64,000 nt of DNA from Pseudomonadota bacterium (GTDB lineage: Bacteria; Pseudomonadota; Alphaproteobacteria; UBA11222): contig JBMOMX010000035.1 of NCBI GenBank assembly GCA_049323435.1, positions 10,357-74,356 of the forward strand, in the 5' to 3' direction. The number at the start of each line of letters is the position of its first letter. Position 1 is the stretch's first letter. Below the pieces are notes generated by a model. The model worked only from the letters and a program-made list of their open reading frames with translations, had not been told where the DNA came from and searched no databases. Made by a program: the position numbers and the translations under genes. Positions 1,841-40,134 of this stretch are shown one piece after another.

Positions 1841-3607
1841 TCACCGCTCCAGCACATACAGGCCCGGCGCATCGCCCAGAGGCGCATAACCCTTTTGCGG
1901 CGCGCCCATTTGCGGCGAACTTACTCTATACCCGGAATGCCGGATCAGCCAGTCCTGCCAGCATAGCCACCAGGAGCCTTCCTGGCGCGGTGTCGCCTGC
2001 TGCCAGCGATCCGGATTTACATAGTTTTCGTCATCTTTTTGCGTCGATATCTGATAATGCTGCCCTGGCTGGCCCGGCGGGTTGACGATGCCCGCATTAT
2101 GGCCGCCATTCGACAGCACAAAGGTTACATCAGAACCAGTGAGCATCTGGATTTTGTAAACAGAACGCCAGGGCGCAACCTGATCCCCGATCGTACTCAC
2201 CGCGAAGATCGGAACCCGTATATCGCGCAGCGATACGGGCCGTCCGTCACACTCATAACGGCCCTCAACCAGATCATTGTCAAGAAACAGATGCCGCAGA
2301 TAGCCCGAATGCATATGAAAAGGCAGGCGCGTTGCATCGGCATTCCAGGCCATAAGATCGTTCATCGGCCGCCGCTGGCCCATCAGATAGGTTTTCACCA
2401 GCGCGGACCAGATCAGATCGTTCGAGCGCAAAAGCTGAAACGCGCCCGCCATCTGGCGCGTGTCGAGATACCCCTGTTCGGCCATCATATCCTCCAGAAA
2501 GCTGACCTGCGCATCGTCAATGAACAGCATCAGCTCTCCGGCCTCGGTGAAATCCGTCTGTGCGGCGAACAGCGTCAGGCTCTGAAGGCGGTCATCCGCA
2601 TCCCTGGCCATGGCGGCGGCGGTAATGGCGAGCAGCGTGCCGCCAATGCAATATCCGGCGGCGTGTATCTTCTGGCCGGGAACGATAGCCGAGATGGCGT
2701 CCAGCGCGGCCATGACGCCAAGCCTGCGGTAATCAACCATGCCCAGATCGCGGTCAGCGCCGGTGGGGTTCTTCCAGGAAATCATAAAAACCGTATGGCC
2801 TTTTTCCGTCAGATATTTTACCAGCGAATTTTCCGGAGAAAGATCGAGGATATAATATTTCATGATCCAGGCGGGGGTGATGAGAATCGGCTCCGCATGC
2901 ACGGTGTCCGCCGCCGGGGCATATTGAATCAGTTCGATCAGCCGGTTGCGGAGCACCACCTTGCCGGGCGTGACCGCCACATTGCGGCCAACCTGAAAGG
3001 CTTCCGCGCCAGCCGGCGGTGCGCCATTCACGGCCCGGCGCCAGTCTTCCCACAAATTGCGTGCGCCAATGACAAAATTCATTCCGCCCTGCCGGATGGT
3101 TTCCTCCAGTATTTCCGGATTTGTCAGCGGGAAATTCATTGGGGAAAGCATGTCAAGCAACTGACGCGCGGTAAAGGCGGTCACATCTTCATGGTGCCGG
3201 GAAACCCCGTCAACCCCTATGGTGGCGTTGTGCCACCATTGCTGCGTCAGCAGAAACCCCTGAGATATGGCGGCGAAGGGCTGTTTGCGCCACGCCTCGC
3301 CGGTGAAGCGGTTGTCAAATGGCAGCGGTTCAATGCATGGTGCGCAGGCAGGATCCGAACTGGCGCGCAGGCAATAGTCGGCGAAGCGCATCGATTTGCG
3401 CAAGGCCTTTATGGCAAGCAGGGCCTGCTTGTCAGGCGATAACAGCAGATGCTGCGCCCAGTCCGTATAGGCCTGCGCCAATGCGGCGGGCGAAATCCCG
3501 GCCGTAAATAACGCCGTGGCGGCGTGCAGCGGACGGTCGAAGGAAAAGGGCAGCCGCTCCGGCGGCTCTTTCCCCAACTGGTTTAATGACGGTGCTCGTT
3601 TTGCCAT
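1841..3607 (-). CDS. phaC: Class I poly(3-hydroxyalkanoate) synthase
   Basis: 588 aa, a typical class I length. Lipase-box GYCIGG is present and the alpha/beta-hydrolase core is conserved. It ends only 37 nt from the start of the acyl-CoA synthetase gene. Confidence 0.93.
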   Translation of the reverse strand: MAKRAPSLNQLGKEPPERLPFSFDRPLHAATALFTAGISPAALAQAYTDWAQHLLLSPDKQALLAIKALRKSMRFADYCLRASSDPACAPCIEPLPFDNRFTGEAWRKQPFAAISQGFLLTQQWWHNATIGVDGVSRHHEDVTAFTARQLLDMLSPMNFPLTNPEILEETIRQGGMNFVIGARNLWEDWRRAVNGAPPAGAEAFQVGRNVAVTPGKVVLRNRLIELIQYAPAADTVHAEPILITPAWIMKYYILDLSPENSLVKYLTEKGHTVFMISWKNPTGADRDLGMVDYRRLGVMAALDAISAIVPGQKIHAAGYCIGGTLLAITAAAMARDADDRLQSLTLFAAQTDFTEAGELMLFIDDAQVSFLEDMMAEQGYLDTRQMAGAFQLLRSNDLIWSALVKTYLMGQRRPMNDLMAWNADATRLPFHMHSGYLRHLFLDNDLVEGRYECDGRPVSLRDIRVPIFAVSTIGDQVAPWRSVYKIQMLTGSDVTFVLSNGGHNAGIVNPPGQPGQHYQISTQKDDENYVNPDRWQQATPRQEGSWWLCWQDWLIRHSGYRVSSPQMGAPQKGYAPLGDAPGLYVLER

Positions 3608-3694
3608 GTCTGATTATAATGTCTAACTTAGCTACGCTTGCAAACGCGGGGACGCAACGGCTGCCCGTAAATACACTGCGCGATCATTTGCGGG

Positions 3695-4285
3695 TCAGCG
3701 CTTTCTGCCACGCGCAGCAGATTTGGAAACAGTGGATGTGCGTTTACCAGCGCCCGTTTTAAGCAATGCCCGGACCTTTTTATTTTTCACCGGCGCGTCA
3801 TCATCATCATCATCATCATCCGTTTCCTCATCGGATGACGCCACATGTAATGTGAACTCTTTCGTTGCATCCGCTATGGCCGTCTCAGCCGCAGTATCGG
3901 CTCTCGCGGCCATATCGCGGACCATGGCCTGGCCACGCTCTTGCAGCCTTTGCGTCAGCTCCAGCCAGCTCCGGGTTTGCCCGGAGAAGCTCTCCATTAT
4001 GTCCGATACAATATTGGATTGGACGTCGATCAGATCCTGCGGCTTGCGCGCGCTGAACAGATCCTGAAAGTAACGCACGCTCCGTTCGCTGGCGGCTTTC
4101 AGCGCCTCGGTCTGGCGGGCCGATGCGTCCTGAACAAGCTTGCTCATATCCGCATTGTGCGCCTGAAATTTTCCGAAAAGGGATTCCATTTCGGATGTAT
4201 TGAAAATGCCGGACTGACCCCAGAAGGCACGCAAGCCGTTAAAGGGATTCATTGCCGCCGGGATGATTTCTGATGGTGCAGTCAT
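3695..4285 (-). CDS. Phasin (PHA granule-associated protein) with a poly-Asp and Lys-rich C-terminal tail
   Basis: The ORF runs to 4339, but AGGGAG sits 7 nt before the ATG at 4285 (MTAPSEIIPAAMNPF...). The body is a helical phasin-type sequence. It ends DDDDDDDD...KNKKVRALLKTGAGKRTSTVSKSAARGRKR. It lies next to phaC. Confidence 0.78.
   Translation of the reverse strand: MTAPSEIIPAAMNPFNGLRAFWGQSGIFNTSEMESLFGKFQAHNADMSKLVQDASARQTEALKAASERSVRYFQDLFSARKPQDLIDVQSNIVSDIMESFSGQTRSWLELTQRLQERGQAMVRDMAARADTAAETAIADATKEFTLHVASSDEETDDDDDDDDAPVKNKKVRALLKTGAGKRTSTVSKSAARGRKR
3798..3820. repeat. (TCA/ATC)7-8 trinucleotide microsatellite encoding the poly-Asp run of the phasin
   Basis: Plus strand reads gtcatcatcatcatcatcatcatcc. 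On the coding (minus) strand this is GAT repeats that give D8. Confidence 0.9.
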
Positions 4286-4425
4286 GATTCGTGCTCCCTG
4301 GTTATAGTTTACGCTTTGTAAGCTTAATGATCCGATCACGGAGCAATAATTTCATTGCCCCTGAATGATGCGAAAATCCTACCGCGCCATCGTGACGTAT
4401 TCGTGACAGGCGCGAATTTTTTCCG

Positions 4426-5436
4426 CTAAAGCAGCAGACTTGCAGTGATAATAAAACTCATTATTGAGAACGTGTCCTGAAGCACGGTGGCGACAGGACC
4501 AGAGCCAAGCGCGGGATCATATCCAAGCCGCGCGAACAGCCACGGCAGCAGAAAACCAATGGAGGTGGCGACGCTGCATGCAATAACCAGTGCTATCGCA
4601 ACAGACGCGCCCAGCGCCAGGCTGCCAAAACCCAGCCAGACCAGCGGCAAAGCCAGCGCCCCTAATGTTACGCCAATCACAATGCCGGTTCCGATCTCGC
4701 CCAGCAATAACTGCCCCATCCGGGCTTGTGTCAGTGACAGGCTTCGCACCGCAACCGATTCCGTCTGTGTTCCGACGGCGTCAGCGAGATAGACAATTGC
4801 GGGAATGAAGAAGGTAATTGCGATATGCGCCGCAAGCAGCGTCTCGAATTGCGATATCATGAGTGTCGCCAGGGCGCTGCCCGCCATACCGGCAAGCAGC
4901 CATGGCAATCTGTACCAGGCGCGCCGGAACGGCGGCGCCGTCAACGCCGCCTGCGCCGCCTCGGATTTTCCCATGATGCCAACAATATGATGCAGATCCT
5001 CAAGATGCTCATCACGCAGGATCAGCATCAGCGCCGCAGCCGGCACGGCGCCAATAAGGCGGCCATTCGCGTCGCAAACCGCCAGCGATGTGGCGTCTGC
5101 GCGGATCGCCAGGCTGGCGGCCAGTTCGCGATCCGTCTGAGGCGAAACGACATGGCTATTGGCAGGGAACATCAGCGCACTGATTATCTTGCTGGAAGGC
5201 GCCGCCAGAAGATCCGTAAGCTTGGCGACGCCCAGCAGCTTTTGGTCTTTATCGATGACAAAAACATGCGATGCATCGGCATAGCGCTGGCCCATAAGCC
5301 GCCCGCGCGCATCGGCGGCGCTTTCATCAGGCCCCGAAATGGGAATATCACGCACAATATAGCGCGCAACGGTTTGAGGATGCGGTGTTTCGTCCGGGGA
5401 GACAATGTCCACCATATTTTCAGACGCTGCTGTCAT
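4426..5436 (-). CDS. MgtE-family Mg2+/divalent-cation transporter, short form (CBS pair plus MgtE membrane domain, no MgtE_N)
   Basis: 336 aa. A CBS-pair region (VFVIDKDQKLLGV..., AVCDANGRLIGAV) is followed by five hydrophobic helices typical of the MgtE transmembrane domain. Confidence 0.82.
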   Translation of the reverse strand: MTAASENMVDIVSPDETPHPQTVARYIVRDIPISGPDESAADARGRLMGQRYADASHVFVIDKDQKLLGVAKLTDLLAAPSSKIISALMFPANSHVVSPQTDRELAASLAIRADATSLAVCDANGRLIGAVPAAALMLILRDEHLEDLHHIVGIMGKSEAAQAALTAPPFRRAWYRLPWLLAGMAGSALATLMISQFETLLAAHIAITFFIPAIVYLADAVGTQTESVAVRSLSLTQARMGQLLLGEIGTGIVIGVTLGALALPLVWLGFGSLALGASVAIALVIACSVATSIGFLLPWLFARLGYDPALGSGPVATVLQDTFSIMSFIITASLLL

Positions 5437-5547
5437 GGCTCACGCGCCACCTTTCATAGAGCCAATGGGGTGGCTTCACCACTATTGCGCCGGTTGATAG
5501 CGCGCCTTCAGGCAGGCTGCTTAAGCAAACTGCATCCTCTCGGAAGC

Positions 5548-5640
5548 GTACCCCCTCCCAACCTCCCCCTTTCAGGGGGAGGAGTCATTCGCCGCAGCGT
5601 CCCCTCCCCTTGGAAAGGGGGGGGGACAGGGAGGGGATCA
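5548..5640. repeat. Compound GC-rich palindromic intergenic element, copy 1
   Basis: Hairpin cctccccctttcagggggagg at 5562-5582 has a 9-bp stem. A second G/C hairpin, cccctcccc...ggaggggatc, follows, and the two are nested inside outer inverted arms. The 21-nt core is identical to the one at 31241-31261. Translation gives the artefactual PFQGEG peptide. Confidence 0.8.
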
Positions 5641-5688
5641 ACGGCACACAAGAAAGCAAGCCGTGTATCAAGCTGATCACAAAATGCT

Positions 5689-6054
5689 CTAGGCGATAGC
5701 CCCAATCAATGCCAGCGCCGACCGCTCGATAATCTTCTCGAGAACGAAGCCCCCGACCAGGCGGGTCGCAATCCTGCCTGTCTCCGAGATCACGTCTGTC
5801 TGCGCCTGCGGCACACCGCCTTCTGGCGTAACGATATTGTGGCCACGCAAATGATCCAGCAGGCCATTATGGCAGATCAGGCGCATATCATAGGTAATCT
5901 TAATGCTGCCGGTAACCGTGCTGGCCTCAACCGTTTTAACACCCTGTAATGCGGAGAGGGTTTCGCACACACGGCCCGCCAACCACTCATCGCGCTTGAT
6001 GGCGTCGCTGCGTACCCTCAGCCGGCCCGGAACATGATGCAGATAATGGACCAC
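5689..6054 (-). CDS. Hypothetical protein with an HMA-like fold lacking CxxC (HxVPGRxRxR motif), paralogue A
   Basis: GTG start with AGGAG 7 nt upstream. It opens VHYLHHVPGRLRVRSD...GVKTVEASTVTGSIKITYD. The predicted b-a-b-b-a-b order matches heavy-metal-associated domains, but Arg residues replace the metal-binding cysteines. The same motif occurs in ORF 6906-7427 and at the N-terminus of the ATPase at 12148. Confidence 0.65.
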   Translation of the reverse strand: MVHYLHHVPGRLRVRSDAIKRDEWLAGRVCETLSALQGVKTVEASTVTGSIKITYDMRLICHNGLLDHLRGHNIVTPEGGVPQAQTDVISETGRIATRLVGGFVLEKIIERSALALIGAIA

Positions 6055-6265
6055 GGTTGCTCCTGTGGTGGTTTAAGTCACGATCCCTCTATGTCAAAAA
6101 TATTTCAGTTTCAGTGTTGGTTTTATGAAGAAATGGTGACGGGCAAAGTGCCGTGGATGCAGCGCAAGCAATAATCCGGCCTTCTCCGATCTGACTGAAT
6201 TGCCGGATTCAATCAGATCGGATATTCCGTATTAGCGGCATGCGCCTGTCTGTGCCGGGTCGTTG

Positions 6266-6913
6266 TTACAGCACGCCATCACGTGGAGGTTGCGGTTTAC
6301 CCTCTGGCAGCAATGCGCCTGCTACACGCTTGACACCGCCCAGGACATTGACCAGCACGCTTTCCACTGCTGACACTGCCGTGTTGCTGATGCTTCCCGC
6401 CGCCTCAAGCGCGCCGTTCGCTGCCGATACGGCCAGATTGCCAACATTGCCGCCAATTTCAGCCGCCGCCTCGACCACGCCCTCCACAACGCGCTTGGCG
6501 ACCGTGCCGACATCGCCGCCAACTTCAGCCGTGCCCTTGACCGCAGTTTTAGCGAGTTCCGCAGCCGCGCCAATAAGATCGCCGCCAACATCACTGACGC
6601 CAAGAATGACGCCCTTGGCGACGCTCTTGGTGGACAGGACCAGTCCGGTGCCGACCTGCTCCGTGGCCTGGATGGTTCCATGGATCACGTCGCGGGCAAC
6701 CCCGAGTGTTTCGGATGTCACCGATTTAGCGGCATGCACCGTGTTGGTGACGGTGCTGCGCGCCAGCGCCACGATCTCAGCCTCGATTTGGTCGATACCG
6801 CGCAGGCTGTTCACGATACCGTCTTTGATCTTGAGGCCAGCCTCGCTGGCCGGCTGCGCGGTTTCATGCATTATCTCGGCTGCTGTTTCTTTAACATGTG
6901 GGGTCTTAACCAT
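6266..6913 (-). CDS. Hypothetical Gly/Ala/Val-rich protein with degenerate ~21-aa tandem repeats
   Basis: The ORF runs to 6994, but the ATG at 6913 has AAGGAG 7 nt upstream (MVKTPHVKE...). The repeats are SDVGGDLIGAAAELAKTAVKGT / AEVGGDVGTVAKRVVEGVVEAA / AEIGGNVGNLAVSAANGALEAA / GSISNTAVSAVESVLVNVLG. I see no recognisable family. Confidence 0.6.
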   Translation of the reverse strand: MVKTPHVKETAAEIMHETAQPASEAGLKIKDGIVNSLRGIDQIEAEIVALARSTVTNTVHAAKSVTSETLGVARDVIHGTIQATEQVGTGLVLSTKSVAKGVILGVSDVGGDLIGAAAELAKTAVKGTAEVGGDVGTVAKRVVEGVVEAAAEIGGNVGNLAVSAANGALEAAGSISNTAVSAVESVLVNVLGGVKRVAGALLPEGKPQPPRDGVL

Positions 6914-7427
6914 CTCTGTCTCCTTGCTGCTGATGTTTACGTTGTGCTTTCCTCCCCTCGCTTCCGCTTCTTTTAGGCGTGGCAACCGGGGCAATAGCCT
7001 CGATTTCCAGCGCCGCTTGATCTGTGTCCGCGTTCAACAGGCTGAACGCGTACCAGAAAAATGTTGCAGCCGGCGCAAGGACATTACCCTGCGCCAGCTG
7101 ATAAAGGCCAAGCCCGATCAATAGCGGCGGCAACAGGCTTCGCAGGTCCAGCGCCGCTATGTCCGTAGACGGTGCAGGCGGTTCCCCGCCAAGCCGGAAC
7201 AGGCCGTGTTGTTCGGCATAGCGCGTTATCGCTTCCGGCTCGGTGGTGTGAATGACCAGCACGCTTCCCGTCATAGGGTTTATTTCCACCGTCTGCACCA
7301 TCTCGCATTTCAACAGCTCCGCGCCTATATGGGCATAAAATTCCCGGTCCCCGCGCCGCGCCGCAATCCGGTAGCGCACTCTTCCAGGCACCTCATGCGT
7401 CAGCGCGGCGGCTGCATCGCCATTCAC
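6906..7427 (-). CDS. Hypothetical protein with an HMA-like fold lacking CxxC, paralogue B
   Basis: GTG start whose codon overlaps the upstream stop as GTGA. It opens ...THEVPGRVRYRIAARRGDREFYAHIGAELLKCEMVQTVEINPMTGSVLVIHT. The C-terminal half is hydrophobic and Pro/Leu-rich. Its stop overlaps the next gene's start by 8 nt. Confidence 0.62.
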   Translation of the reverse strand: MNGDAAAALTHEVPGRVRYRIAARRGDREFYAHIGAELLKCEMVQTVEINPMTGSVLVIHTTEPEAITRYAEQHGLFRLGGEPPAPSTDIAALDLRSLLPPLLIGLGLYQLAQGNVLAPAATFFWYAFSLLNADTDQAALEIEAIAPVATPKRSGSEGRKAQRKHQQQGDRDG

Positions 7428-7792
7428 TGGACCGATCCAGGAAAAATATTATCGGGCTCCTCAGCCGCGGGCTTCGCCGGCTGCTGCCGCGCCGCCTGGG
7501 GCGCCGCCGTGGCGGCCGTCGCTGTGGCTGTGGCGGCCGCCGCCGTCTGCCGCTCTTTCGCCAGTTCCGCATGCGCCTCAGCGGCTGTGTCTTCGATGAA
7601 CTCGCCAAGTTCCGCTGCGGCCTCCCGCCCGCGCTCGAACATCTCAATGCCGGTTTTGAGCAAGGTTTTTGCCACCGGCCGGGCAGCCCGCAGAACGACA
7701 GGAACGATCACCGGTCCCAATACCGCGACACCAAGGCCCACCGCCAAACCAACAACAACGTTTCGCTTCAACATCTCATCAATGATCATCAT
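7424..7792 (-). CDS. Hypothetical small membrane-anchored helical protein with an Ala/Thr low-complexity tail
   Basis: ATGATG start. One N-terminal transmembrane helix (VVVGLAVGLGVAVLGPVIVPVVL) is followed by a charged helical region, then AAAATATATAATAAPQAARQQPAKPAAEEP. Confidence 0.55.
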   Translation of the reverse strand: MMIIDEMLKRNVVVGLAVGLGVAVLGPVIVPVVLRAARPVAKTLLKTGIEMFERGREAAAELGEFIEDTAAEAHAELAKERQTAAAATATATAATAAPQAARQQPAKPAAEEPDNIFPGSVQ

Positions 7793-7916
7793 CTGTAACC
7801 GCCATTCCTTCTCTACTCTCTGCGTTTAGCGTTCGGCGGGGCCTAATTCTGGTTCAGTGATGACCGCCTTGCGCTACAAACTCATGTCAATCCGCCTTCC
7901 AGGCGGAGAAAAGTAT

Positions 7917-9116
7917 CTAATCCCGCAGCGCGGGCACCTTGTCGATGCGTTCCCACGGCAGCCCAATATCCATGCGGCCTATATGACCATATGCCGCAAG
8001 GCGGCTGTAGAAGCGGCCGCGAAACAAAGCCGGCAGGCGGCGCAGATTAAATTCCGCGATTATTCCGGCTGGCCGAAACTCGAATGCGGCCTGCAACCTT
8101 TTTGCGATCTCTTCGTCCGCAATACGGCCCGTGCCAAAAGTCTGCACGCGCAGGCTGACAGGTTGCGCCATGCCGATCGTGTAACTGAGTTGCAACTCGC
8201 ACTCCTCCGCAAGCCCGGCGGCAACGACATTCTTCGCCGCGTAGCGGGCGGCATAGGCGCTAATCCGGTCAATGCGCGATGGGTCCTTACCGCTCAGGGC
8301 CGCGCCGCTGTGGCGTGAATATTCGCCATAAGTGTCAATCGCATTTTTGCGGCCGGTAAGCCCCGCATGCATTTCCGGCCCGCCCGTGAATAGCAGGCCG
8401 CCGGGATTGACGAAAATGCGGGTGGCGTTATCGGGGCGGATTAATTCATCTTCAAAGACCGGCTTGACGGCAAGATCGACGAGGTTTGCCTCCAGCTCCT
8501 TTAACGAAGGGGCGTGCCGGGGATCAACCGCGGCTGTAATGGTAAGGCTGTGGATGCGATGCGGGCGCCGGTTGCGATACTCCACCGCAACCTGAATCTT
8601 GCCGTCAGGGGCGAGATAGCCAAGCTGACGGGTGAGGCGGACGGTTGCGATGCGCCGCGCCAGCTTGTGCGCAAGCCAGACCGGCAGGGGCATCAGCGCA
8701 GCGGTCTGGGTGCAGGCATAGCCGAACTGGGTTACCTGGTTATCGGCGGCAATTGCGTCAATGCCCGCATCGTCCAGCATGGTTTCGTCGATCTCGCGGT
8801 AGGCGCCGCCAACTTCGGTAAGACTGGTCATGATGTGGCAGTTCGCGGCCGTGAACCCGTCTTCGTCATCGCCATTGCCATAGCCCGCACGCCTTATTGC
8901 CTGACGGGCAACCATTGGCGCATCAATCGTGGCGCGCGATGCGAAACGCACGGCAAGGAAGAGGATGCCCTTCGCAACGGCGCATTCGGCGTCAAGCCGG
9001 GAAAACGGGTCGGCAAGCAGATAACTGTCGAGGATCGAATCGCTGATCTGGTCGCACAGCTTGTCCGGATGCCCTTCGGTTACGGATTCGGATGTGAAGA
9101 CAAAATCTTCCATCAT
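7917..9116 (-). CDS. metK: S-adenosylmethionine synthetase, a divergent MetK paralogue
   Basis: The ORF extends to 9305, but the MetK N-terminus MMEDFVFTSESVTEGHPDK begins at 9116, giving 399 aa. The conserved blocks are altered: GGGAFSGKD is replaced by HSGAALSGKD, and DQGxMFGYA by DNQVTQFGYA. The ATGATGG start overlaps the ATPase TGA stop. Confidence 0.85.
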   Translation of the reverse strand: MMEDFVFTSESVTEGHPDKLCDQISDSILDSYLLADPFSRLDAECAVAKGILFLAVRFASRATIDAPMVARQAIRRAGYGNGDDEDGFTAANCHIMTSLTEVGGAYREIDETMLDDAGIDAIAADNQVTQFGYACTQTAALMPLPVWLAHKLARRIATVRLTRQLGYLAPDGKIQVAVEYRNRRPHRIHSLTITAAVDPRHAPSLKELEANLVDLAVKPVFEDELIRPDNATRIFVNPGGLLFTGGPEMHAGLTGRKNAIDTYGEYSRHSGAALSGKDPSRIDRISAYAARYAAKNVVAAGLAEECELQLSYTIGMAQPVSLRVQTFGTGRIADEEIAKRLQAAFEFRPAGIIAEFNLRRLPALFRGRFYSRLAAYGHIGRMDIGLPWERIDKVPALRD

Positions 9117-12100
9117 GCGCCTCCATCCGGATTTGCGGCTTGCGCCCGCAGCCGCGCGCCCTTGATGGTCTCGTTGACAAGCAGCGAACCTGCGGCAGCC
9201 GCGCCCGCCACGGCGTAATCCGCCAGTCCAAGCGCATCCAGCCCAAGCAGGCGGCGCGTTACAGGGAATAATGCGGCGAGCCCCTGCAACCCCAGCAGAC
9301 CCCATACCGCCTGGTTGAGACGCGGATTGGGCGGCAGCGCATTACGCTCGAAGATGGTGTGGCGCGGCGATCGGGCGGAGAGGGCATGCAGTAATTGCCC
9401 GGCGGCAAGCGTGATAAAGGCCACACCGCCAGCCGCCGGGCCAGCGCCATAGCGGGCGGCGCCATACAGATAGGCGGCCAGCCCGCCCGCGCTAAGCACC
9501 GCGCCTTCAATGCCGATGCGCCGGAACTCTTCTGCGGTAATCAGGGGTTCCCGCGGATCGCGCGGCGGGTCTTTGAGCACGTCCGGCTCGGGCGGTTCCA
9601 GCCCCAGCGCCAGCGCCGGGAAAATGTCCGAAACCAGATTGATCCACAATAGCTGCACCGGCGTAAGCGGCTGACCGAGACCAAGGCCGACCGCCCCCAG
9701 CATGACAAAGATTTCACTGGAATTGGTGGCGAGCAGGTAATGGATCGCCTTGCGGATGTTAGCGTAAATGGTCCGCCCCTGACCAAGCGCGACCAGCATG
9801 CTTTGAAGCCGGTCGTCCTCAAGGATCACATCGGCTACTTCGCGCGCCACATCGGTGCCGCTCTGGCCCATGGTCACTCCAATATCGGCCGCGCGCAGCG
9901 CAGGCCCGTCATTGATGCCATCACCCGTCATGGCCACAATATTGCCGTTGCGTTGCAGCGCCTGCACGATCTGCAATTTGTTCGCCGGGCTGACACGGGC
10001 GAACACATGCGTGCGCTGCGCCAGCCCCGCCAGCAATCCGGGATCAAGTCTGTCAAGATCAACGCCTTCAAGAATTTCCACAGGCTGGCCCTGAGAGAGA
10101 TCAAGCTCCCTGGCGATAGCGAAGGCCGTCGCACCCTGGTCACCTGTAATGATAATGGTGCGCAGGCCCGCATCATGGAAGTCCCGCATCAGCGCCGCCA
10201 TGCCGGGGCGCGTCGGATCGGCAAGGCCAGCCAGGCCCAGCCAGGAAAATGCGCCGGGATCCTGGGCATCGCCCTGGCGGGTTGCAAAGCCGAGCACCCG
10301 CAGGCCGCGCCCAGCCATTGCCTGGTTCAGTGCCTGGATGCGCAGCACATCCTCTTCGTCAAGCGGCCGCTCCGCGCCGCCATCAAAAAAGGCCGTGCAT
10401 AATTGCAGCACTTCGTCCGGGCTGCCTTTGACGGCCGTGAACGGGCAGCCATCCTCGCCTGCATGGCTGGTCATCATGAAACGATGCTGTTCCGTGCGCC
10501 GGTCCATATTGAGCATCGGGCGCTGTGCGCGCAATTGCCGCACATCGATGCCCGCAGACATGGCAAGTTCTATCAGCGCGGTTTCGGTCGGCGAACCCTT
10601 CAGCGAGACGTCTTCGTCCTCAGCGATCTCGACTTCGCTGCACAAGACGCAGGTTTCCAGCAGCCTGCGCAGTTCATCGTTTGCAGATGCGCTAGCCCCG
10701 GAATGGTTGCGCTGAATCTGACCGTCCGCGATCTCGAAGATTTCGCGGGCATTCGCGACCGCCACGGCGCTCATGCGGTTGAGCGTTAGCGTGCCTGTCT
10801 TGTCGAGGCATACGGTGCTGACGGCGCCAAGGGTTTCAACAGCATCCAGGCGGCGGATGAGAACGTTATGCGTCCGCATGGTGCGGATGCCCAGCGCCAG
10901 CGTCACCGTTGCGACTGTCGGCAGGCCTTCGGGCACCGCAGCAACGGCCAGCGAGACGCTGCTTCGGAGCATTTGCAACATTCCAAAGCCGCGCAGCAGA
11001 CCCAGCGAGAAAACCAGCCCACAGGCGCCCAGGCTGAGCCAGACCAACTGTTTGCCCATGATATCGAGCTGATGCTGCATGGGCGTTTCCGGCGGCCGTG
11101 CATCGCCCACCAGGGATTGAATATGGCCAAGTTCGGTGCGTTCCGCCGTCGCCGTCGCCGCCGCCAGGCCGGAGCCGCCCGTAACCGCGGTTCCCTTGAA
11201 CACCATATTTGCGCGATCGCCCAGCGCTGTCCCGGCGCTGGCGATGGCGGTAGCGCTCTTGACCGAGGGCATGCTTTCACCGGTAAGCGCGGATTCATCA
11301 ATTGTGAGATCCTTTGCCTCAATGACCCGCGCATCGCAGGCGATAAGCGTGCCCGGAACAAGCTTCAGCATATCGCCCGGAACGATGTCACAGGACGCGA
11401 CCTCGCAAACACCGCCGTCGCGCAGCACCAGCGGCGCAGCGGGCACAAGCCGGCCGAGCGCTTCAATGGTGTGCTCCGCCTCGGACTCGGAACGATAGCC
11501 AATGGCGGAATTTAGCGCCACGACCGCGAGAATAACCACTGCGTCCGCAAGCCCCCCGGTCGCAACCGACAGCGCCGCCGATCCGAGCAGCAAAAGCGAG
11601 GGCAAGCTGTTGACCTGGCCAAGCAGAATTTCAAGCGCGCTGCGGCGCGGCATTTGCGGCAGCGCATTCGGCCCGTAGCGCGCCAGCCGCAGCGCGGCCT
11701 CGCTGCTGGAAAGGCCTTGCTCCGGCTGTGTCTCCAGCCGCTGCAACACCTGCTCCCTGCTCAGCGTATGGGGCGGGGCATCCCCCGGGACGGCGTCTGG
11801 CATGCCGCTATCCTCGCGCTTCCTGCCTGCGGGGAAGGGAACGACATTTGGCGCCGGCTTTGGTTCGCCGATGTCCGCCGCGCCGGAATCGAGCATGGCC
11901 GCCACAGCCTGGATTATTGTGTCAACGGATCGCGCAGGATCAAAATGCACCAGCAGATTGCCGGTGCGGATATTTGCGGCGGCGGCGCGAATGCCGCTGC
12001 GCCCCGGAAGCCGATGCTCCAGCATCTGCGCAACCCCGGTATTGCGGTCAAGGCCAACCACTTTCAGGCGTGCGCGGCCGCTGACCGCGACATGCAGCGG

Positions 12101-12148
12101 TACGACGCCTGCAAGCGATGCGGCCATTGACGCCACGCTCATGACCAT
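9113..12148 (-). CDS. Cation-transporting P-type ATPase, P2 (Ca2+-ATPase-like) type, with an extra ~128-aa HMA-like N-terminal domain
   Basis: 1011 aa. It carries DKTGTLT, PEGLP, KGSPDEVL, TGDGINDGPAL and GVTMGQSGTDVAREVADVIL, and a Cation_ATPase_N helix (LSSSEAALRLARYGPNALPQ) at about residues 130-165. Ahead of that helix lies ...PLHVAVSGRARLKVVGL...TGNLLVHFD. Confidence 0.9.
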   Translation of the reverse strand: MVMSVASMAASLAGVVPLHVAVSGRARLKVVGLDRNTGVAQMLEHRLPGRSGIRAAAANIRTGNLLVHFDPARSVDTIIQAVAAMLDSGAADIGEPKPAPNVVPFPAGRKREDSGMPDAVPGDAPPHTLSREQVLQRLETQPEQGLSSSEAALRLARYGPNALPQMPRRSALEILLGQVNSLPSLLLLGSAALSVATGGLADAVVILAVVALNSAIGYRSESEAEHTIEALGRLVPAAPLVLRDGGVCEVASCDIVPGDMLKLVPGTLIACDARVIEAKDLTIDESALTGESMPSVKSATAIASAGTALGDRANMVFKGTAVTGGSGLAAATATAERTELGHIQSLVGDARPPETPMQHQLDIMGKQLVWLSLGACGLVFSLGLLRGFGMLQMLRSSVSLAVAAVPEGLPTVATVTLALGIRTMRTHNVLIRRLDAVETLGAVSTVCLDKTGTLTLNRMSAVAVANAREIFEIADGQIQRNHSGASASANDELRRLLETCVLCSEVEIAEDEDVSLKGSPTETALIELAMSAGIDVRQLRAQRPMLNMDRRTEQHRFMMTSHAGEDGCPFTAVKGSPDEVLQLCTAFFDGGAERPLDEEDVLRIQALNQAMAGRGLRVLGFATRQGDAQDPGAFSWLGLAGLADPTRPGMAALMRDFHDAGLRTIIITGDQGATAFAIARELDLSQGQPVEILEGVDLDRLDPGLLAGLAQRTHVFARVSPANKLQIVQALQRNGNIVAMTGDGINDGPALRAADIGVTMGQSGTDVAREVADVILEDDRLQSMLVALGQGRTIYANIRKAIHYLLATNSSEIFVMLGAVGLGLGQPLTPVQLLWINLVSDIFPALALGLEPPEPDVLKDPPRDPREPLITAEEFRRIGIEGAVLSAGGLAAYLYGAARYGAGPAAGGVAFITLAAGQLLHALSARSPRHTIFERNALPPNPRLNQAVWGLLGLQGLAALFPVTRRLLGLDALGLADYAVAGAAAAGSLLVNETIKGARLRAQAANPDGGA

Positions 12149-12636
12149 CCACCCCAGTCTGCCTTAGCGCGCAGGAAAAGAGGTAAAACCAGGCCGGTAC
12201 AGTAAGGCAGCTGCTCTATCACCGGTAAATCCTGAATTGCACAATATTGCGCTCCACATTTCCCGCGTCCGGCGGGCGGCGAGAATGGCCGCGGGACCAA
12301 ATCGCTCGAACGGGTATTCTCGCTCCCCAGCCAGAATGGTGCGGAAGCTGCCGCAGTTGACTTGATCGAGATCAAATTTGCGATGACATGTTGATTAAGT
12401 TTTTATTACAGCCTGGATCAGCATCACTTTGCCGCGCAGACGGCGCAAAGAAATGGTTCTGGCTTAGGTTTGGAGAATGGCGTCTGCGGGGAGGAGAGAT
12501 GGCTGCTATCTATCGCGGCCTCAAAATAAATATTTCAGGAAAAAACACGCTAAAAATAACGCTGCGAGATGCCAGCCCCGGCGCCGTTTTTCCCCGGTTT
12601 CATCCCATGCGCTGTAACGTCTGGCTGGCGGATTGC

Positions 12637-13947
12637 CTATTCCTTGCTGATCAGAACCGTTTCGACATGATGGTCGCGCATGCCTTCGACAATGAAGCGG
12701 TAGGCGCCATCGGTGATCATGTCCCCTTCCACCGGAATACGTTCCAGCCGGTGCATGAACAGGCCGGACAATGTATTCACATTGACCGGCTCGCCGGGAA
12801 TGTAACCGGTTTCACGCTCGACATCGGCCAGTGACGCCAGGCCATGCGCCTTCCATCCGGCGTCTGTTTCGGTGATCGGAAATTCCGAAATATTTTCGTC
12901 CGTTTCATCGGCGATTTCGCCGACAATTTCTTCCAGCAGATCTTCAATCGTCACCAGGCCGGCAAAAGTGCCATATTCATCCAGAATGCAGGCCATATGC
13001 GCCTTTTTAACCCGCATCATTTCAAACAAGGTGGAAACCTTGAGCGATTCCGTAACCACCAGCGGCTCACGGCAATGGATGCGCAAATCTTTCCAGGGCT
13101 CGGGCCCGCCCGAAAGCAGGGTGTCCACAATATCCTTCATCAGAATCATGCCGATAAGACTGTCGCCGCTGCCATCGACAAGCGGAAAACGCGAATGGCG
13201 CGTGTCTTTCATAATGGCCAGGTTGGACTCCGGCGGCTGATCCAGCCGCAGCAGATCACACTTCATCCGCGGGATCATGACCTGGCCCACTGTGCGTTCG
13301 TTGAACCGGAACAGGTTCTGGATCATCTCCGCGGTGTCAAGGTGCAATTCGCCATGCTCGGCCGATGTCGTCACCAGGCCGCGAAATTCCGTATTGGTCA
13401 GCACATCCATATGGCTGGCCTCCTCGACGCCGAACAGGCCAAGCATGCCCCGTGACGCCCGGTTAAGCCCCCAATGCAAGGGATAGGACAGCAGATAAAA
13501 AATCCGCAATGGAATGGCGCAGAACAATGAAAGCGCCTCGGGCTTGCGGATGGCGAAGGTTTTCGGCACCTGTTCTCCCACGACGATATGCAGCGACGAA
13601 AAGACAGTGAAGCCGATCAGAAACGAAATCGTATGCAATGCCGGCTGGCTCAGTTCGAACGGCGCCAGCAGCGGCTCGATCAGCGCCGCCACCGCTGGTT
13701 CGCCCACCCAGCCCAAACCAAGCGAAGCCATGGTGATGCCAAGCTGACAGGCCGCCAGATAGGCTTCGAGCTCCTCCTGTATTTTAAGGGTCAGTTTAGC
13801 CGAAAAACTGCCCGTGCTGGCCATGCTTTCAATACGAAATCCCCTCGCTTTCACCAGTGCGAATTCCGCCGCCACAAAAAATGCATTGGCGGCCAGCAGC
13901 ACCAGTACGGCGATCAGACTTACCGAAATTTCCTCGCTCGTCAGCAT
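12637..13947 (-). CDS. HlyC/CorC (CNNM) family transporter: DUF21, CBS pair and CorC_HlyC domains
   Basis: 436 aa. It has the N-terminal four-TM DUF21 region, CBS domains and the C-terminal CorC domain. Confidence 0.9.
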   Translation of the reverse strand: MLTSEEISVSLIAVLVLLAANAFFVAAEFALVKARGFRIESMASTGSFSAKLTLKIQEELEAYLAACQLGITMASLGLGWVGEPAVAALIEPLLAPFELSQPALHTISFLIGFTVFSSLHIVVGEQVPKTFAIRKPEALSLFCAIPLRIFYLLSYPLHWGLNRASRGMLGLFGVEEASHMDVLTNTEFRGLVTTSAEHGELHLDTAEMIQNLFRFNERTVGQVMIPRMKCDLLRLDQPPESNLAIMKDTRHSRFPLVDGSGDSLIGMILMKDIVDTLLSGGPEPWKDLRIHCREPLVVTESLKVSTLFEMMRVKKAHMACILDEYGTFAGLVTIEDLLEEIVGEIADETDENISEFPITETDAGWKAHGLASLADVERETGYIPGEPVNVNTLSGLFMHRLERIPVEGDMITDGAYRFIVEGMRDHHVETVLISKE

Positions 13948-31226: not shown

Positions 31227-31320
31227 TGACCCCCTCCCGGCCTCCCCCTTTCAGGGGGAGGAGGGCGATAGCCGCGCATACTCCCTCCCCCTGCAAGGGG
31301 GAGGGCTGGGGTGGGGGTCC
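31227..31320. repeat. Compound GC-rich palindromic intergenic element, copy 2
   Basis: Hairpins cctccccctttcagggggagg (31241-31261) and ccctccccctgcaagggggaggg (31283-31305) sit inside outer inverted arms gaccccctcccggcc / ggctggggtgggggtc. Confidence 0.8.
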
Positions 31321-32277: not shown

Positions 32278-32290
32278 TGATCATAGATTG
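32278..32290 (+). promoter_or_regulatory. Putative operator box TGATCATAGATTG upstream of amidohydrolase paralogue 1
   Basis: The same box occurs at 46196-46208 and 47506-47518, 24-26 nt before each paralogue's ATG. In this copy it lies inside a perfect 16-bp palindrome ATCTATGATCATAGAT, next to a second half-site TGATCACA at 32266-32273. Confidence 0.5.
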
Positions 32291-32316
32291 TGAAGCCGCG
32301 TCAACGGAGGAAACCC

Positions 32317-33486
32317 ATGAAGACAGGAATCGGACCAGGAGCCATCTCGGCGGACAGTCATATCGTCGAGCCGCCAAATTGTTATATCGACTATATTGAA
32401 CCGAAATACCGCGATACCGCCCCGCATGTGGCGGCCGGTGAAAATGGCCAGGACATCATCGTCATCAAGGATATGAAGAAAACCGTGCCCATGGGTTTTC
32501 TGGCTGGCGCCGGCATGACACCCAATGACCGCGCCAAATTCGCAGCGACCACCAAATTCGACGGCATCCGCCGCGGCGCCTGGGATCCCAAGGCGCGCGC
32601 CGCCGATCTGGACCAGGATGGTATTGCCGCTGAAATCATATATGCCTCCATTGGCATGATTTTATGCACCCACCCGGATGCGGAATATAAAAATGCCTGT
32701 ATGCAGGCCTATAACCGCTGGCTTCAGGAATTTTGCGGCGGCTTGCCGAACCGGCTGTTCGGGCTGGCGCAAACCGCCGTTCTGTCCGTGGACAGCGCGA
32801 TCGAGGATTTCCGCCGCGCCAAGGAAATGGGTTTTGTCGGCATGATGATGCCGGGCAATCCCATTCAGGGCGATTACGACAAGCCGGAATATGACGCTTT
32901 GTGGGAATGCGCGGTGGATCTCGACCTGCCGCTGGCGTTTCATATTCTTACCTCATCGGAAGGCAGCATCGAAAGCGTATTGGCGCCAAAGCGCGGACAT
33001 CCGCTGGGCGGATTCCTGAATATCATCCGCGCGGTGCAGGACATTGTATGCCTGTTCACCCTGACCGGCATTTTCGAGCGCTTCCCCAAACTGAAACTGG
33101 TTTGCGCGGAAGGCGATGCGGGCTGGATGCCGCATTACATGTACCGGATGGATCATGCGGCGACCTTTAACCTGCAAACCGGCATCATTCCGGGGCTGTC
33201 CAAACTGCCCAGCGAATATCTGCGCAGCAATGTCTGGATGACCTTCCAGGATGACGGGATCGCCTATCAGACCGCGCATCTGATGAATCACAAGCGCCTG
33301 ATCTGGGCCAATGATTTTCCGCATACGGATTCGACCTGGCCGCGCTCGCAGGCATTGATCAGCAAACAAGCCAAAGGACTGACCGCGGCGCAGCATCAGG
33401 ATATTTTCCGCAACAATGTGGCGGAACTGTTCAATCTGCCCGCGGGCAATGAATCCTGGCAGATGCACAAAATGGCGGCGGAATAG
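32317..33486 (+). CDS. Amidohydrolase family protein (PF04909 / Amidohydro_2 type), paralogue 1
   Basis: It has the ISADSHIVEPPNCY...HILT...ANDFPH metal-ligand pattern. GGAGGA precedes the ATG at 32317. It is about 70% identical to the ORFs at 46235 and 47543. Confidence 0.85.
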   Translation: MKTGIGPGAISADSHIVEPPNCYIDYIEPKYRDTAPHVAAGENGQDIIVIKDMKKTVPMGFLAGAGMTPNDRAKFAATTKFDGIRRGAWDPKARAADLDQDGIAAEIIYASIGMILCTHPDAEYKNACMQAYNRWLQEFCGGLPNRLFGLAQTAVLSVDSAIEDFRRAKEMGFVGMMMPGNPIQGDYDKPEYDALWECAVDLDLPLAFHILTSSEGSIESVLAPKRGHPLGGFLNIIRAVQDIVCLFTLTGIFERFPKLKLVCAEGDAGWMPHYMYRMDHAATFNLQTGIIPGLSKLPSEYLRSNVWMTFQDDGIAYQTAHLMNHKRLIWANDFPHTDSTWPRSQALISKQAKGLTAAQHQDIFRNNVAELFNLPAGNESWQMHKMAAE

Positions 33487-33571
33487 CGCCGCCCGCGCCG
33501 GAATGGCCTGATCGGATCAATCGGGGACAGTATAAATGCTGTCCCCGATAAGCCGTGCGCCCCGGCCAGTG

Positions 33572-34840
33572 TTAGGCCGGATCAAACATTATGTGCAGTT
33601 CCTTTAACCCGCGCAGAACGATGCTGGGTTCATGGTGCGGGTCGGGATGACCGGGCGCCAGGCGCAGATTTTTCATCCGTGTCAGGATGGTTCTGAACGC
33701 CAAATTCATTTCCTTGCGCGCCAGCATGGCCCCCAGGCAGTGATGCGTGCCCTGGCCAAACGCCACATGGCGGGCCGCGTTTTCACGGCGCACGTCGAAT
33801 TTTTCCGCCCCCTCGAATTGCGCCTCGTCACGATTGGCGCTGGCGAACATCAGCATCACCGCTGCGCCTTTGGGCATGAAGGTTCCGCCCAGCGTCGTGT
33901 CGCGGGTAGTAACCCGGAAAAGACCCTGCACCGGGCCGTCAAAGCGCAGCACTTCCTCGGTCAGGTTCTCCACCAGCGACATATCATCAAGCACCAGTTG
34001 CATTTGATCCGGGTGCTGAAGCAATAGCATCATTCCCTTGGACAGCGAGTTGGTAGTGGTTTCATTACCCGCCGCCAGCAACTGATTGAGCACGGACAAT
34101 AGTTCCGCTGTGCTCATCGGCTCGCCATTTTCCATACGCGCGCGCACCAGATCGGAAATAATGTCATCGGTGGGATTGGCGCGTTTTTCCTCGATCACCC
34201 TGGCGAAATATAGCTGAAACTCCAGCATCAGTTTCGAGGCTGCAATACGCTGTTCCTTGCTGGACACGCCGCTGATCTGCTGGGTCAGCGCATCCGACCA
34301 TTGCTTGAAAATTCCGATATCGCTGCGCGGCACACCAAGCTGATCGGCAATGATAATCATCGGCAGCGGCACGGTGAATTGCGACACGAACTCGCACTTG
34401 CCGTCTTTGATGAATTTGTCAATCAGCTCGTCGACCAGGTTCTGAATATAGGGTTCCAGCTGATTGACGCGCGCCTGGGAAAACACCTTGTTGATCGGGT
34501 TGCGATAGAATTTATGCTTGGGCGGATCCACCGTGATCAGTGTGGGCACAGAAGGATAGCCGCCATAATCTTCAAACCGGGTGCGCATTTCGGGCGGCGC
34601 CATTAAATCAATGACATCGCTGGAAAAAGTCGCGGTGTCCTTGAGCGCCTTCACAACATCCTCATAGCAGGTGACGGTAAAAAACCCGGCAACCGGGTCT
34701 TTATGAACCGGATCTTCTTCCCGCAGTTTTTTGTAGGTGTGATACGGGCATTCGATCACATCCATATCGACCAGCGTGGTCTGCTCCAGTGGCTTTTGCG
34801 CAGCAATGCGGCCCTTTTCTTCAAGTTCCGTCCGGATCAT
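33572..34840 (-). CDS. Cytochrome P450
   Basis: 422 aa with heme loop FGQGTHHCLGAMLA, an ExxR motif and the AGNETT I-helix. Confidence 0.9.
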   Translation of the reverse strand: MIRTELEEKGRIAAQKPLEQTTLVDMDVIECPYHTYKKLREEDPVHKDPVAGFFTVTCYEDVVKALKDTATFSSDVIDLMAPPEMRTRFEDYGGYPSVPTLITVDPPKHKFYRNPINKVFSQARVNQLEPYIQNLVDELIDKFIKDGKCEFVSQFTVPLPMIIIADQLGVPRSDIGIFKQWSDALTQQISGVSSKEQRIAASKLMLEFQLYFARVIEEKRANPTDDIISDLVRARMENGEPMSTAELLSVLNQLLAAGNETTTNSLSKGMMLLLQHPDQMQLVLDDMSLVENLTEEVLRFDGPVQGLFRVTTRDTTLGGTFMPKGAAVMLMFASANRDEAQFEGAEKFDVRRENAARHVAFGQGTHHCLGAMLARKEMNLAFRTILTRMKNLRLAPGHPDPHHEPSIVLRGLKELHIMFDPA

Positions 34841-35121
34841 GGCAAATTCCTCAGTTGGTTGCGGTCTGCAAATGACAGGCCTATCAGGCCCTCATCTACA
34901 ATATTATCAGTAATATGGTTTATTTTTGGTCAAGAGGCAAATTGCTTGTAAGAGATTTACAAAAAAATGCCGTTGCGTCCCTTGCCTTCTGGCTGCCACG
35001 GCGGCAAGACAGGGGGTGAATGACAGGCGCGATAATTCAGGGCACGCCCTGGAATAACAGGCATCCCGGTCCGTTACATACCCAGATCAACTGGCCGTGT
35101 TTTCTCCGGCCAGCCTGATTG

Positions 35122-40129: not shown

Positions 40130-40134
40130 TCGGT

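Follow-up and report, generated by a model that had tools for sequence, protein, structure and literature searches.

The fez gene clusters encode FezB, a P-type ATPase whose N terminus bears an "R-rich" RxRxR motif; FezC, in which an HMA domain with the same motif is joined to two transmembrane helices; and FezA-type proteins, which are small, hydrophobic, and marked by GxxxG. The genes are needed for a lipid-bounded organelle (bioRxiv 10.1101/2020.01.10.902569), and ferrosomes hold iron phosphate (PMC13307979). Related parts surround calcyanin, which marks intracellular amorphous CaCO3 (iACC) in cyanobacteria. The N-terminal domain of calcyanin was the first CoBaHMA domain to be defined, by a ferredoxin-like HMA fold to which an N-terminal strand (β0) with a conserved His is added, by conserved basic residues in β1 and β2, and by the absence of CxxC (PMC8890360). 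The Microcystis locus has two DUF5132 genes and one CoBaHMA-plus-hairpin gene on the flanks of ccyA and a Ca2+/H+ exchanger gene; of these, one DUF5132 gene and the CoBaHMA gene are co-expressed with both (bioRxiv 10.1101/2024.07.07.602159). Here we analyze six minus-strand genes at positions 5689 to 12148 of a 64,000-nucleotide (nt) stretch of contig JBMOMX010000035.1, from a Pseudomonadota bacterium of the alphaproteobacterial lineage UBA11222; this whole stretch is called the window below. The genes belong to a conserved, horizontally mobile module that combines a CoBaHMA-tagged Ca2+-type pump, a MetK-fold enzyme, two CoBaHMA proteins, a DUF5132 protein, and a repeat protein, REP.

RESULTS

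A pump, a MetK paralogue, and small proteins form a conserved gene module

From its upstream end, the cluster encodes a P2-type (Ca2+-type) P-type ATPase of 1011 amino acids (aa; positions 9113 to 12148), a MetK-like enzyme of 399 aa (7917 to 9116), a DUF5132 protein of 122 aa (7424 to 7792), CoBaHMA-B of 173 aa with a GTG start (6906 to 7427), REP of 215 aa from the ATG at 6913 (6266 to 6913), and CoBaHMA-A of 121 aa, again with a GTG start (5689 to 6054). A first-pass annotation of the window had placed six minus-strand open reading frames (ORFs) here, and our ORF check found all of them; independent Joint Genome Institute gene calls on near-identical metagenome contigs recovered these six products. 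The junctions were also correctly described. The ATPase and MetK-like genes are translationally coupled through an ATGA overlap at 9113 to 9116, the DUF5132 and CoBaHMA-B genes share GTGA at 7424 to 7427, and CoBaHMA-B and REP overlap by 8 nt at 6906 to 6913. Gaps of 124 nt (MetK-like to DUF5132) and 211 nt (REP to CoBaHMA-A) separate the remaining genes.

We examined the linkage of these genes in two sets of loci. Seven loci were selected through the ATPase, at 51 to 83% identity, from Alpha- and Betaproteobacteria, Nitrospirota, Deltaproteobacteria, and unclassified Pseudomonadota. In all seven, a MetK paralogue directly follows the ATPase gene, and five also encode DUF5132, CoBaHMA-B, a protein of 230 to 345 aa, and CoBaHMA-A; the proteobacterial loci among those five carry a short MgtE gene as well. 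The cultured strain Nitrosospira sp. Is2, whose genome is complete (CP137134.1), has the full gene set. For the other set, a REP scan of 185,579 GTDB species genomes yielded 225 loci, and the best 80, selected through REP only, were analyzed. The MetK paralogue was present in 52 of these and occurred together with the pump in 50; DUF5132 was found in 64, CoBaHMA-B in 51, and CoBaHMA-A in 41, several of the absences being due to contig ends. Where the ATPase and MetK paralogue were paired, MetK followed on the same strand in 54 of 54 loci, with a 4-nt overlap in 32 and a spacing of at most 30 nt in 49. The commonest order on one strand was DUF5132, CoBaHMA-B, REP, ATPase, MetK, so the order in the window is a permutation. 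Homologues of the small ORFs are therefore linked to the ATPase/MetK pair rather than scattered, the pump being present in 54 of the 80 REP loci, and the neighborhood, whose conservation the first-pass annotation had proposed to check among alphaproteobacteria, is strongly conserved beyond that class.

The conserved ATPase-MetK pairing and the linkage of the small ORFs show that the cluster is a functional module. Its conserved unit is a core of DUF5132, CoBaHMA-B, REP, ATPase, and MetK-like genes, usually with CoBaHMA-A. Our literature search found no paper on the ATPase-MetK pairing or on the module, although a published list of CoBaHMA architectures (Gaschignard 2024, Proteins) may already hold P-type ATPase fusions. 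The earlier suggestion of an undescribed system thus appears to hold for the module but not for its CoBaHMA and DUF5132 families, which already have names.

About 17 fully flanked REP loci lack the pump, usually with DUF5132 present. Eleven of them belong to a Syntrophobacteraceae-type lineage that encodes DUF5132 and REP beside a membrane protein of the TerC family and an ATPase resembling ParA/MinD, in place of the pump/MetK pair (locus L047 of our collection, 8009 to 12311; also L030, L033, L043, L044, L046, L048, L050, L063, L066, and L084). These eleven loci are 72 to 93% identical and hence represent one lineage and a single observation.

The ATPase is a P2-type pump with a CoBaHMA-like N-terminal domain

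The ATPase has the Pfam domains Cation_ATPase_N, E1-E2_ATPase, Cation_ATPase, Hydrolase, and Cation_ATPase_C, and it retains intact TGES, DKTGT, and TGDGIND motifs for catalysis. Among relatives of solved structure, SPCA1 and Listeria LMCA1 come closest. Among NCBIfam models, the PMR1 and SERCA types scored best, but every subfamily stayed below its cut-off, including the top-scoring TIGR01522 (576.6 versus 798.3). Alignment of the ion ligands, numbered as in SERCA, showed that PEGLP in transmembrane helix 4 (TM4), N..E in TM5, and N..[S/T]D in TM6 are invariant in all 57 members of the pump family, whereas the position of SERCA E908 in TM8 is Gln in 52 of the 57. This ligand pattern is compatible with Ca2+ as the transported ion, without proving it. 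Compared with P2A/P2 Ca2+-ATPases (SERCA, SPCA1, and LMCA1), the family thus shares the catalytic motifs, the TM4/TM5/TM6 ligands, and the domain set; it differs in falling below the NCBIfam cut-offs, in its extra CoBaHMA-like domain, in the Gln at E908, and in that a MetK-like gene always follows that of the pump.

The first ~80 residues of the pump family carry the motif H..GRxRx[K/R] ... TG..LV, with the His in 51 and G-R-x-R in 56 of the 57 members. In the window, this domain spans aa 12 to 82 (11903 to 12115, minus strand; H..GRxRxK ... TG..LV). Its match to HMA_2 scored 24.2 bits when the whole protein was searched and 28.5 bits with the N terminus alone, in both cases under the gathering score of 30. 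Many ATPase homologues bear a precomputed PF19991 annotation, and the domain can be aligned with both small CoBaHMA proteins.

The MetK paralogues have a rebuilt methionine pocket

The enzyme encoded next to the pump contains three S-AdoMet_synt Pfam domains and passes the TIGR01034 cut-off (358.7 versus 309.4). We mapped the ligand residues of Escherichia coli MetK by alignment onto 55 ATPase-linked paralogues, with four canonical MetKs as controls (E. coli and annotated Mesorhizobium, Anoxybacillus, and Streptomyces genes). The E. coli numbering is valid, since all 19 residue names taken from the literature agreed with the sequence used. The ligands of ATP/triphosphate, Mg2+, and K+ are kept in the MetK-like enzyme (H14, D16, K17, E42, D163, K165, R244, K245, K265, and D271). 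The window protein carries the substitutions E55R, Q98V, D118N, R229L, D238H, and K269R. In E. coli MetK, the methionine-binding side chains are Q98, D238, and E55' (PMC1282579), and all three are thus exchanged in the window protein, E55' to Arg, Q98 to Val, and D238 to His.

These exchanges are systematic. Across the 55 linked paralogues, D238 is His and K269 is Arg without exception, position 55 is Arg in 48, Val in 5, Gln in 2, and Glu in none, Q98 is kept as Gln in only 3, and no paralogue has Arg at position 229. All four canonical MetKs, by comparison, retain every residue that is altered in the paralogues. Across phyla, the MetK-like proteins are 51 to 63% identical to each other and 39 to 48% identical to canonical MetKs, which are 60 to 67% identical among themselves; plasmid-borne MetKs were all canonical, at no more than 46% identity. 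What the paralogues share with canonical MetK is therefore the three-domain fold, the conserved ATP/triphosphate, Mg2+, and K+ ligands, and a passing TIGR01034 score. The differences are the change of E55, Q98, and D238 to Arg, Leu or Val, and His, altered R229, D118, and K269, an altered GGGAF loop, a 7-residue insertion near the C terminus, and the low identity.

As judged from the alignments, the MetK-like paralogues are a separate clade of the MetK fold with a rebuilt substrate pocket, in which acidic residues have become basic. The first-pass annotation's term "divergent MetK" captured the divergence and understated this rebuilding of the methionine pocket. Since the methionine ligands are all replaced, the enzyme is probably no ordinary S-adenosylmethionine (SAM) synthetase, and we infer that it either uses another co-substrate or acts on ATP/triphosphate alone. 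In Nitrosospira, a gene for the B12-dependent methionine synthase MetH lies divergent to the ATPase-MetK pair (L002, 5673 to 9407; L003, 113 to 3847; L089, 18041 to 20504), a possible hint of a methionine link that comes from a single lineage.

Named families account for three of the four small proteins, and REP is a new predicted α-solenoid

The first-pass annotation had recognized none of the four small proteins as a named family. This applies to REP alone; the other three fall into Pfam families, DUF5132 (PF17195) and, twice, HMA_2/CoBaHMA (PF19991). CoBaHMA-B and CoBaHMA-A matched HMA_2 at 46.2 and 38.1 bits, both above the gathering score of 30. An AlphaFold2 (AF2) model of CoBaHMA-B had predicted local distance difference test (pLDDT) values of 93 to 97 over residues 1 to 80, with the topology β0-β1-α1-β2-β3-α2, followed by a C-terminal hydrophobic hairpin of helices 95 to 112 and 117 to 132. 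Foldseek searches with this model returned HMA domains, the YAM domain of YajR, and KipI-like YbgJK, the same relatives that were used in defining CoBaHMA. H..GRxR is invariant in the CoBaHMA proteins and CxxC is absent, in agreement with the features by which the fold was defined. The CoBaHMA-B family has 476 matches under the NCBI name "HMA2 domain-containing protein." In CoBaHMA-A, the CoBaHMA domain (HYLHHVPGRLRVR...) is followed by a C-terminal helix that is conserved in the orthologue alignment.

The DUF5132 protein matched PF17195 at 42.5 bits (gathering score, 25). Its transmembrane segment, the sole strong one among the small proteins, comprises residues 12 to 30 (VVVGLAVGLGVAVLGPVIV) and contains GxxxGxG; G15, G19, G21, P27, and P31 are invariant in orthologues. 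This N-terminal transmembrane helix is followed by a long charged helix and an Ala/Thr/Pro-rich tail, a layout that agrees with the published description of the Microcystis protein (bioRxiv 10.1101/2024.07.07.602159).

REP is rich in Val, Ala, and Gly and had no match in Pfam or NCBIfam. A 21-aa repeat had been proposed; we found no signal at lag 21, and the period is instead 22 aa (z = 7.7) with a sub-period of 11 aa (z = 5.2). The AF2 model (pLDDT, 84; predicted template modeling score, 0.76) consists of eight helices of ~20 residues arranged as an α-solenoid. A structure search of the Protein Data Bank with this model returned designed helical-repeat proteins only, with no natural relatives. 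REP is thus, on its predicted structure, a new α-solenoid family; it comprises 929 representative clusters among 1.84 billion proteins and had no match among plasmid-borne sequences. Some homologues (P0123, P0125, and P0127 to P0130) end in a Ros/MucR zinc finger and a Lys-rich tail. PhaF and PhaM are DNA-binding granule proteins that tether inclusions to the nucleoid, and the REP-Ros/MucR layout resembles such proteins. With proteins of the apolipoprotein, perilipin, and phasin types, REP has in common periodic helices of 11/22 residues and, in some members, a DNA-binding domain with a Lys-rich tail. It differs from them in lacking sequence homology and in being modeled as a compact solenoid rather than as extended amphipathic helices.

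The module shares parts with fez clusters and with the calcyanin neighborhood

Compared with fez by published description, the module has an R-rich motif on both pump and accessory proteins, an HMA-plus-two-helix protein, and a GxxxG protein. Both are compact clusters of ~3 to 6 genes with a patchy distribution over many phyla, and both have a connection to phosphate. They differ in the class of pump, which is P2-type in the window (PEGLP; N..E; N..SD; Cation_ATPase_N/C) and P1B-6 in fez (D[Y/F]SCA, HNxxT). The module also lacks iron-homeostasis neighbors and adds a MetK-fold enzyme and REP, neither of which has been reported for fez. Finally, no organelle has been observed for the module. We obtained one lead on the R-rich motif itself: the N terminus of CtpC, in an unverified sequence, matched HMA_2 at 25.7 bits, which suggests that the R-rich motif may be the β1 strand of CoBaHMA. 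CtpC has been named as an R-rich pump (bioRxiv 10.1101/2020.01.10.902569).

With the calcyanin neighborhood, the module has in common the CoBaHMA domain, DUF5132, and a CoBaHMA-plus-helical-hairpin protein. Its transporter, in contrast, is a P-type ATPase rather than CAX, and its hosts are nonphotosynthetic (Nitrospirota, Proteobacteria, and others). No calcyanin (GlyZip x3) gene was evident at the locus, where no search with a calcyanin profile was made, and no module protein has a three-fold motif of ~50 aa.

Neighboring genes are involved in phosphate uptake, ion transport, and lipid synthesis

When ORFs from 61 pump loci were clustered with no prior assumptions, the commonest extra neighbors were a PstB-like ATPase (22 loci), PstC/A (21), PstS (20), PhoU (16), and a PAS-HisKA kinase (12). 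Such phosphate-regulon neighbors extend over four phyla: they were found in several classes of Nitrospirota and, outside that phylum, in Methylomirabilis, in Binatia, and in one gammaproteobacterium. Loci with phosphate genes next to the module (pstSCAB, phoU, a gene for a PhoR-like kinase, and others) include many in the range from L012 to L078 as well as others, e.g., L005 (38 to 5729), L073 (1336 to 2520), and L022 (3392 to 4132). A PPK2 gene lies near the locus of Nitrosospira Nsp14, and genes for an alkaline phosphatase and PsiE lie near L005.

As the first-pass annotation had stated, the cluster in the window is flanked by a CNNM/CorC gene upstream (12637 to 13947, assigned by Pfam) and by a gene for a short MgtE-type channel downstream (4426 to 5436, minus strand). 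The latter encodes 336 aa with CBS and transmembrane domains, matching Pfam MgtE and CBS, and has no N-domain. TIGR00400 covers only model positions 166 to 446 at 145.9 bits, below the cut-off of 232.75, so that the protein does not classify as a full-length MgtE. The short MgtE gene lies inside the accessory set in L001, L002/L003, L006, L008, and L089 and was found in 2 of the 80 REP-selected loci; it is a lineage-specific member, belonging to proteobacterial versions of the module. Apart from near-identical contigs, L006 was the only other locus with CNNM; we therefore did not count it as core, and it appears to lie outside the module.

Upstream of the module in L006, a Pseudomonadota metagenome-assembled genome, positions 1988 to 9880 hold an ion-homeostasis island with genes for CNNM, an Na_Ca_ex exchanger, a second P2 ATPase, and an Na/H exchanger. 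This second ATPase has 894 aa and neither a CoBaHMA domain nor a MetK partner. At the position of REP, L006 encodes an unrelated 345-aa protein with a faint Apolipoprotein match.

In Nitrospirota only, the MetK-like gene is often followed by an OlsB-like Acetyltransf_5 gene and then by genes for a PlsC/OlsA-like acyltransferase and a GT21 glycosyltransferase (L012, 14926 to 15900; L013, 15296 to 16276; L036, 4210 to 5511), a set typical of the synthesis of phosphorus-free membrane lipids. A small DUF3562 protein is often encoded after the MetK-like enzyme, in 11 loci of the clustering and in L006 (L006, 14244 to 14474; L031, 14896 to 15207). A double zinc-ribbon protein of ~120 aa, usually beside CoBaHMA-A, was found in 26 of 62 pump loci and 13 of 26 pump-less REP loci (e.g., L005, 14252 to 14620; L047, 9239 to 9601); the window encodes no homologue of it. 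We also considered a link to polyhydroxybutyrate and rejected it: PhaC and phasin genes adjoin the module in the window and in its 83%-identity relative but not in distant loci, and we treat the adjacency as coincidental.

Transcription signals and other features of the window

The same-strand arrangement and the junctions would allow the single six-gene operon that the first-pass annotation had proposed, but what is conserved is not one operon of six genes. The Nitrosospira-type loci have the ATPase-MetK pair and the set of small genes in convergent orientation, and hence in two transcription units. A Shine-Dalgarno sequence had been assigned to every ORF; we found clear ones at three of the six, GGAGG for the MetK-like gene and AGGAG for both REP and CoBaHMA-A. 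The DUF5132 start has AGGA at 13 nt, and a strict scan found none at the ATPase and CoBaHMA-B starts.

The presumed promoter region is the 488-nt intergenic region upstream of the ATPase (12149 to 12636, minus strand), in which we found no Rfam riboswitch, no match to the sigma-70 consensus, and no Pho-box-like repeat. Sigma-70 promoters and intrinsic terminators were predicted no more often than in shuffled sequence, and none was informative; candidate riboswitches or other RNA elements in or upstream of the cluster were likewise rejected as sub-threshold noise. Just downstream of CoBaHMA-A, nested inverted repeats form a palindromic hairpin with G/C runs (CCTCCCC...GGGGAGG; 5552 to 5640, minus strand). 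Its RNA fold is very stable (z = -4.3), and a second copy is found ~26 kb away at 31283 to 31305; the hairpin is probably a REP-like repeated element, or else a transcript boundary before MgtE.

Two plus-strand ORFs of 294 and 207 aa opposite the small genes (within 6195 to 7829) were rejected as shadow ORFs of GC-rich coding DNA, because homology and gene calls back the minus-strand genes only. Elsewhere in the window, positions 57947 to 59997 are a patch of low G+C content at third codon positions (0.48 to 0.49 versus ~0.68 elsewhere) that encodes an HD-domain protein and may be a recently acquired segment. A cluster of three Amidohydro_2 and two cytochrome P450 genes (32287 to 48697) is probably a catabolic island unrelated to the pump module.

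DISCUSSION

The first-pass annotation had suggested a "cation-handling or organelle-like module," and the parallels with fez and with the calcyanin neighborhood make this reasonable, with organelle function staying an inference. By analogy with fez, we tentatively favor a ferrosome-like module for the sequestration of calcium or magnesium phosphate, while placing it somewhat short of an even chance. The results above concern which genes are present, how they are conserved and linked, what domains and ligand residues they encode, and which folds are predicted; from these we infer a transported ion, a subcellular location, a compartment with its mineral, and an enzyme activity as follows. The P2-type pump would move Ca2+, possibly Mn2+ or Mg2+, out of the cytosol. 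The basic H..GRxR surface of its N-terminal domain and of the two small CoBaHMA proteins would bind anionic lipids or partners, and the single-pass GxxxG protein DUF5132 and the REP solenoid would act as membrane-shaping or scaffold parts. The MetK-fold enzyme, made in a fixed ratio with the pump, would still bind ATP/triphosphate and metals; it could perform other adenosyl or triphosphate chemistry or serve as a nucleotide-dependent partner of the pump. Together, these proteins would build or service an intracellular, lipid-associated deposit of Ca/Mg-phosphate (or polyphosphate), and in proteobacteria the short MgtE channel would be added. The more specific proposal of an undiscovered organelle, that is, a lipid-associated Ca/Mg-phosphate (or polyphosphate) storage body constructed like a ferrosome but around a Ca2+-type P2 pump, linked to the phosphate regulon and with a MetK-fold enzyme of new, non-methionine adenosyl or triphosphate chemistry as its obligate partner, strikes us as less likely than not.

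The principal rival is a regulated complex for efflux of Ca2+ (or Ca2+/Mn2+) across the plasma membrane, with no compartment. Because the pump would export its ion from the cytosol in either case, sequestration and efflux are not separable on that ground. In an efflux complex, the CoBaHMA domain and proteins would gate the pump in response to anionic lipids or to some other anionic signal, REP would be a cytoplasmic adaptor, and DUF5132 would be a single-pass regulatory subunit comparable to phospholamban, sarcolipin, or FXYD of eukaryotic P2 ATPases; the whole would serve a stress or ion-homeostasis response, possibly within the Pho response. Most bacterial P2-type pumps are plasma-membrane exporters, and the closest solved relatives, LMCA1 and SPCA1, are efflux or secretory-pathway pumps. 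A regulatory, lipid-binding role of CoBaHMA has been hypothesized in published work, CoBaHMA-type N termini also occur on CtpC-like exporters, the proteobacterial neighbors are ion-homeostasis transporters (MgtE, CNNM, Na_Ca_ex, the Na/H exchanger, and the second P2 ATPase), and the adjacency of Pst/PhoU genes suits a stress regulon. Efflux leaves unexplained, however, why a set of pump regulators should include an α-solenoid repeat protein, which in some lineages is joined to a DNA-binding domain, why REP and DUF5132 occur in pump-less loci, and why there are three CoBaHMA copies and an obligate translational coupling to a MetK-fold enzyme, and it would make the close architectural match to fez, an organelle builder, a coincidence. 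We regard efflux as only slightly less likely than sequestration. What lean toward a structural or compartment role are the kind of protein that REP is, its fusions to DNA-binding domains, its presence in pump-less loci, and the fez-like architecture; the phosphate genes near the module, the iron phosphate of ferrosomes, and the parallels with calcyanin also count in favor of sequestration. Several points, however, weigh against sequestration. No inclusion has been observed, and Ca-rich inclusions are not known from any of the carrier organisms. The CoBaHMA/R-rich N terminus is also found on presumed plasma-membrane pumps such as CtpC and hence is not organelle-specific; this presence on ordinary exporters leans the other way, as does the lack of strong transmembrane segments in CoBaHMA-A, CoBaHMA-B, and REP, none of which has one at a Kyte-Doolittle score of 1.6 or more. 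The cluster was rejected as a fez cluster because its pump is P2-type and not P1B-6, and a link to iACC-forming magnetotactic bacteria was rejected since these reportedly have no P-type Ca2+ pumps (PMC11773610). The TerC/ParA context of REP, coming from a single lineage, was dropped as independent support. The window itself has no phosphate-regulon genes beside the module and no Pho box there, the six Pho-box matches (3.7 expected) all lying outside the relevant intergenic regions. Finally, the role given to the MetK-like enzyme in sequestration is speculative.

Another explanation starts from that enzyme: the MetK paralogue could be a genuine SAM synthetase with a variant pocket, and the small proteins unrelated membrane-stress factors. 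Coupling to a pump could then reflect the need of SAM synthesis for Mg2+ and K+, or a local demand for SAM in methylation or in the synthesis of betaine lipids under phosphate limitation. The three MetK domains, the passing score against the TIGR01034 equivalog model, the full conservation of the ATP, triphosphate, Mg, and K ligands, the divergent MetH gene in Nitrosospira, and the phosphorus-free-lipid genes beside the module in Nitrospirota all speak for it. Yet Q98, D238, and E55' are replaced and R229 and K269 changed at positions that canonical MetKs of four phyla keep, the paralogues form a clade of their own by their mutual identity and their distance from canonical MetKs, and the MetH adjacency is confined to one lineage. 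SAM supply is for these reasons improbable. As for chance adjacency of unrelated same-strand genes, the 124-nt and 211-nt gaps and the lack of operon-level transcript evidence would allow it; dozens of species, representing at least six phyla or classes, nevertheless have this gene set, in rearranged order and with its linkage retained. The neighborhood analysis effectively refutes chance, to which we assign a negligible probability.

If the module does build an organelle, it would extend the ferrosome principle, in which a P-type pump is combined with CoBaHMA-tagged small proteins and a GxxxG protein, to calcium and phosphate. Its genes would then serve to mark intracellular Ca/P sequestration in Nitrospirota, ammonia oxidizers, Methylomirabilis, and many bacteria of sediments and groundwater, with a bearing on the cycling of P and Ca. 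Cultured strains of Nitrosospira and Nitrosovibrio (Nitrosospira sp. Is2 and Nsp14 and Nitrosovibrio sp. Nv6) carry the module, which makes it directly testable. Irrespective of which reading holds, CoBaHMA and DUF5132, which have been discussed until now only in the context of calcyanin in cyanobacteria, belong to the core of a far wider pump module, and REP adds a family, predicted to be an α-solenoid, that is new. Because the MetK-like clade passes TIGR01034, its members are likely to be named methionine adenosyltransferases; for proteins without the methionine-binding residues, that name is probably an annotation error, and the clade may represent a new activity of the MetK fold.

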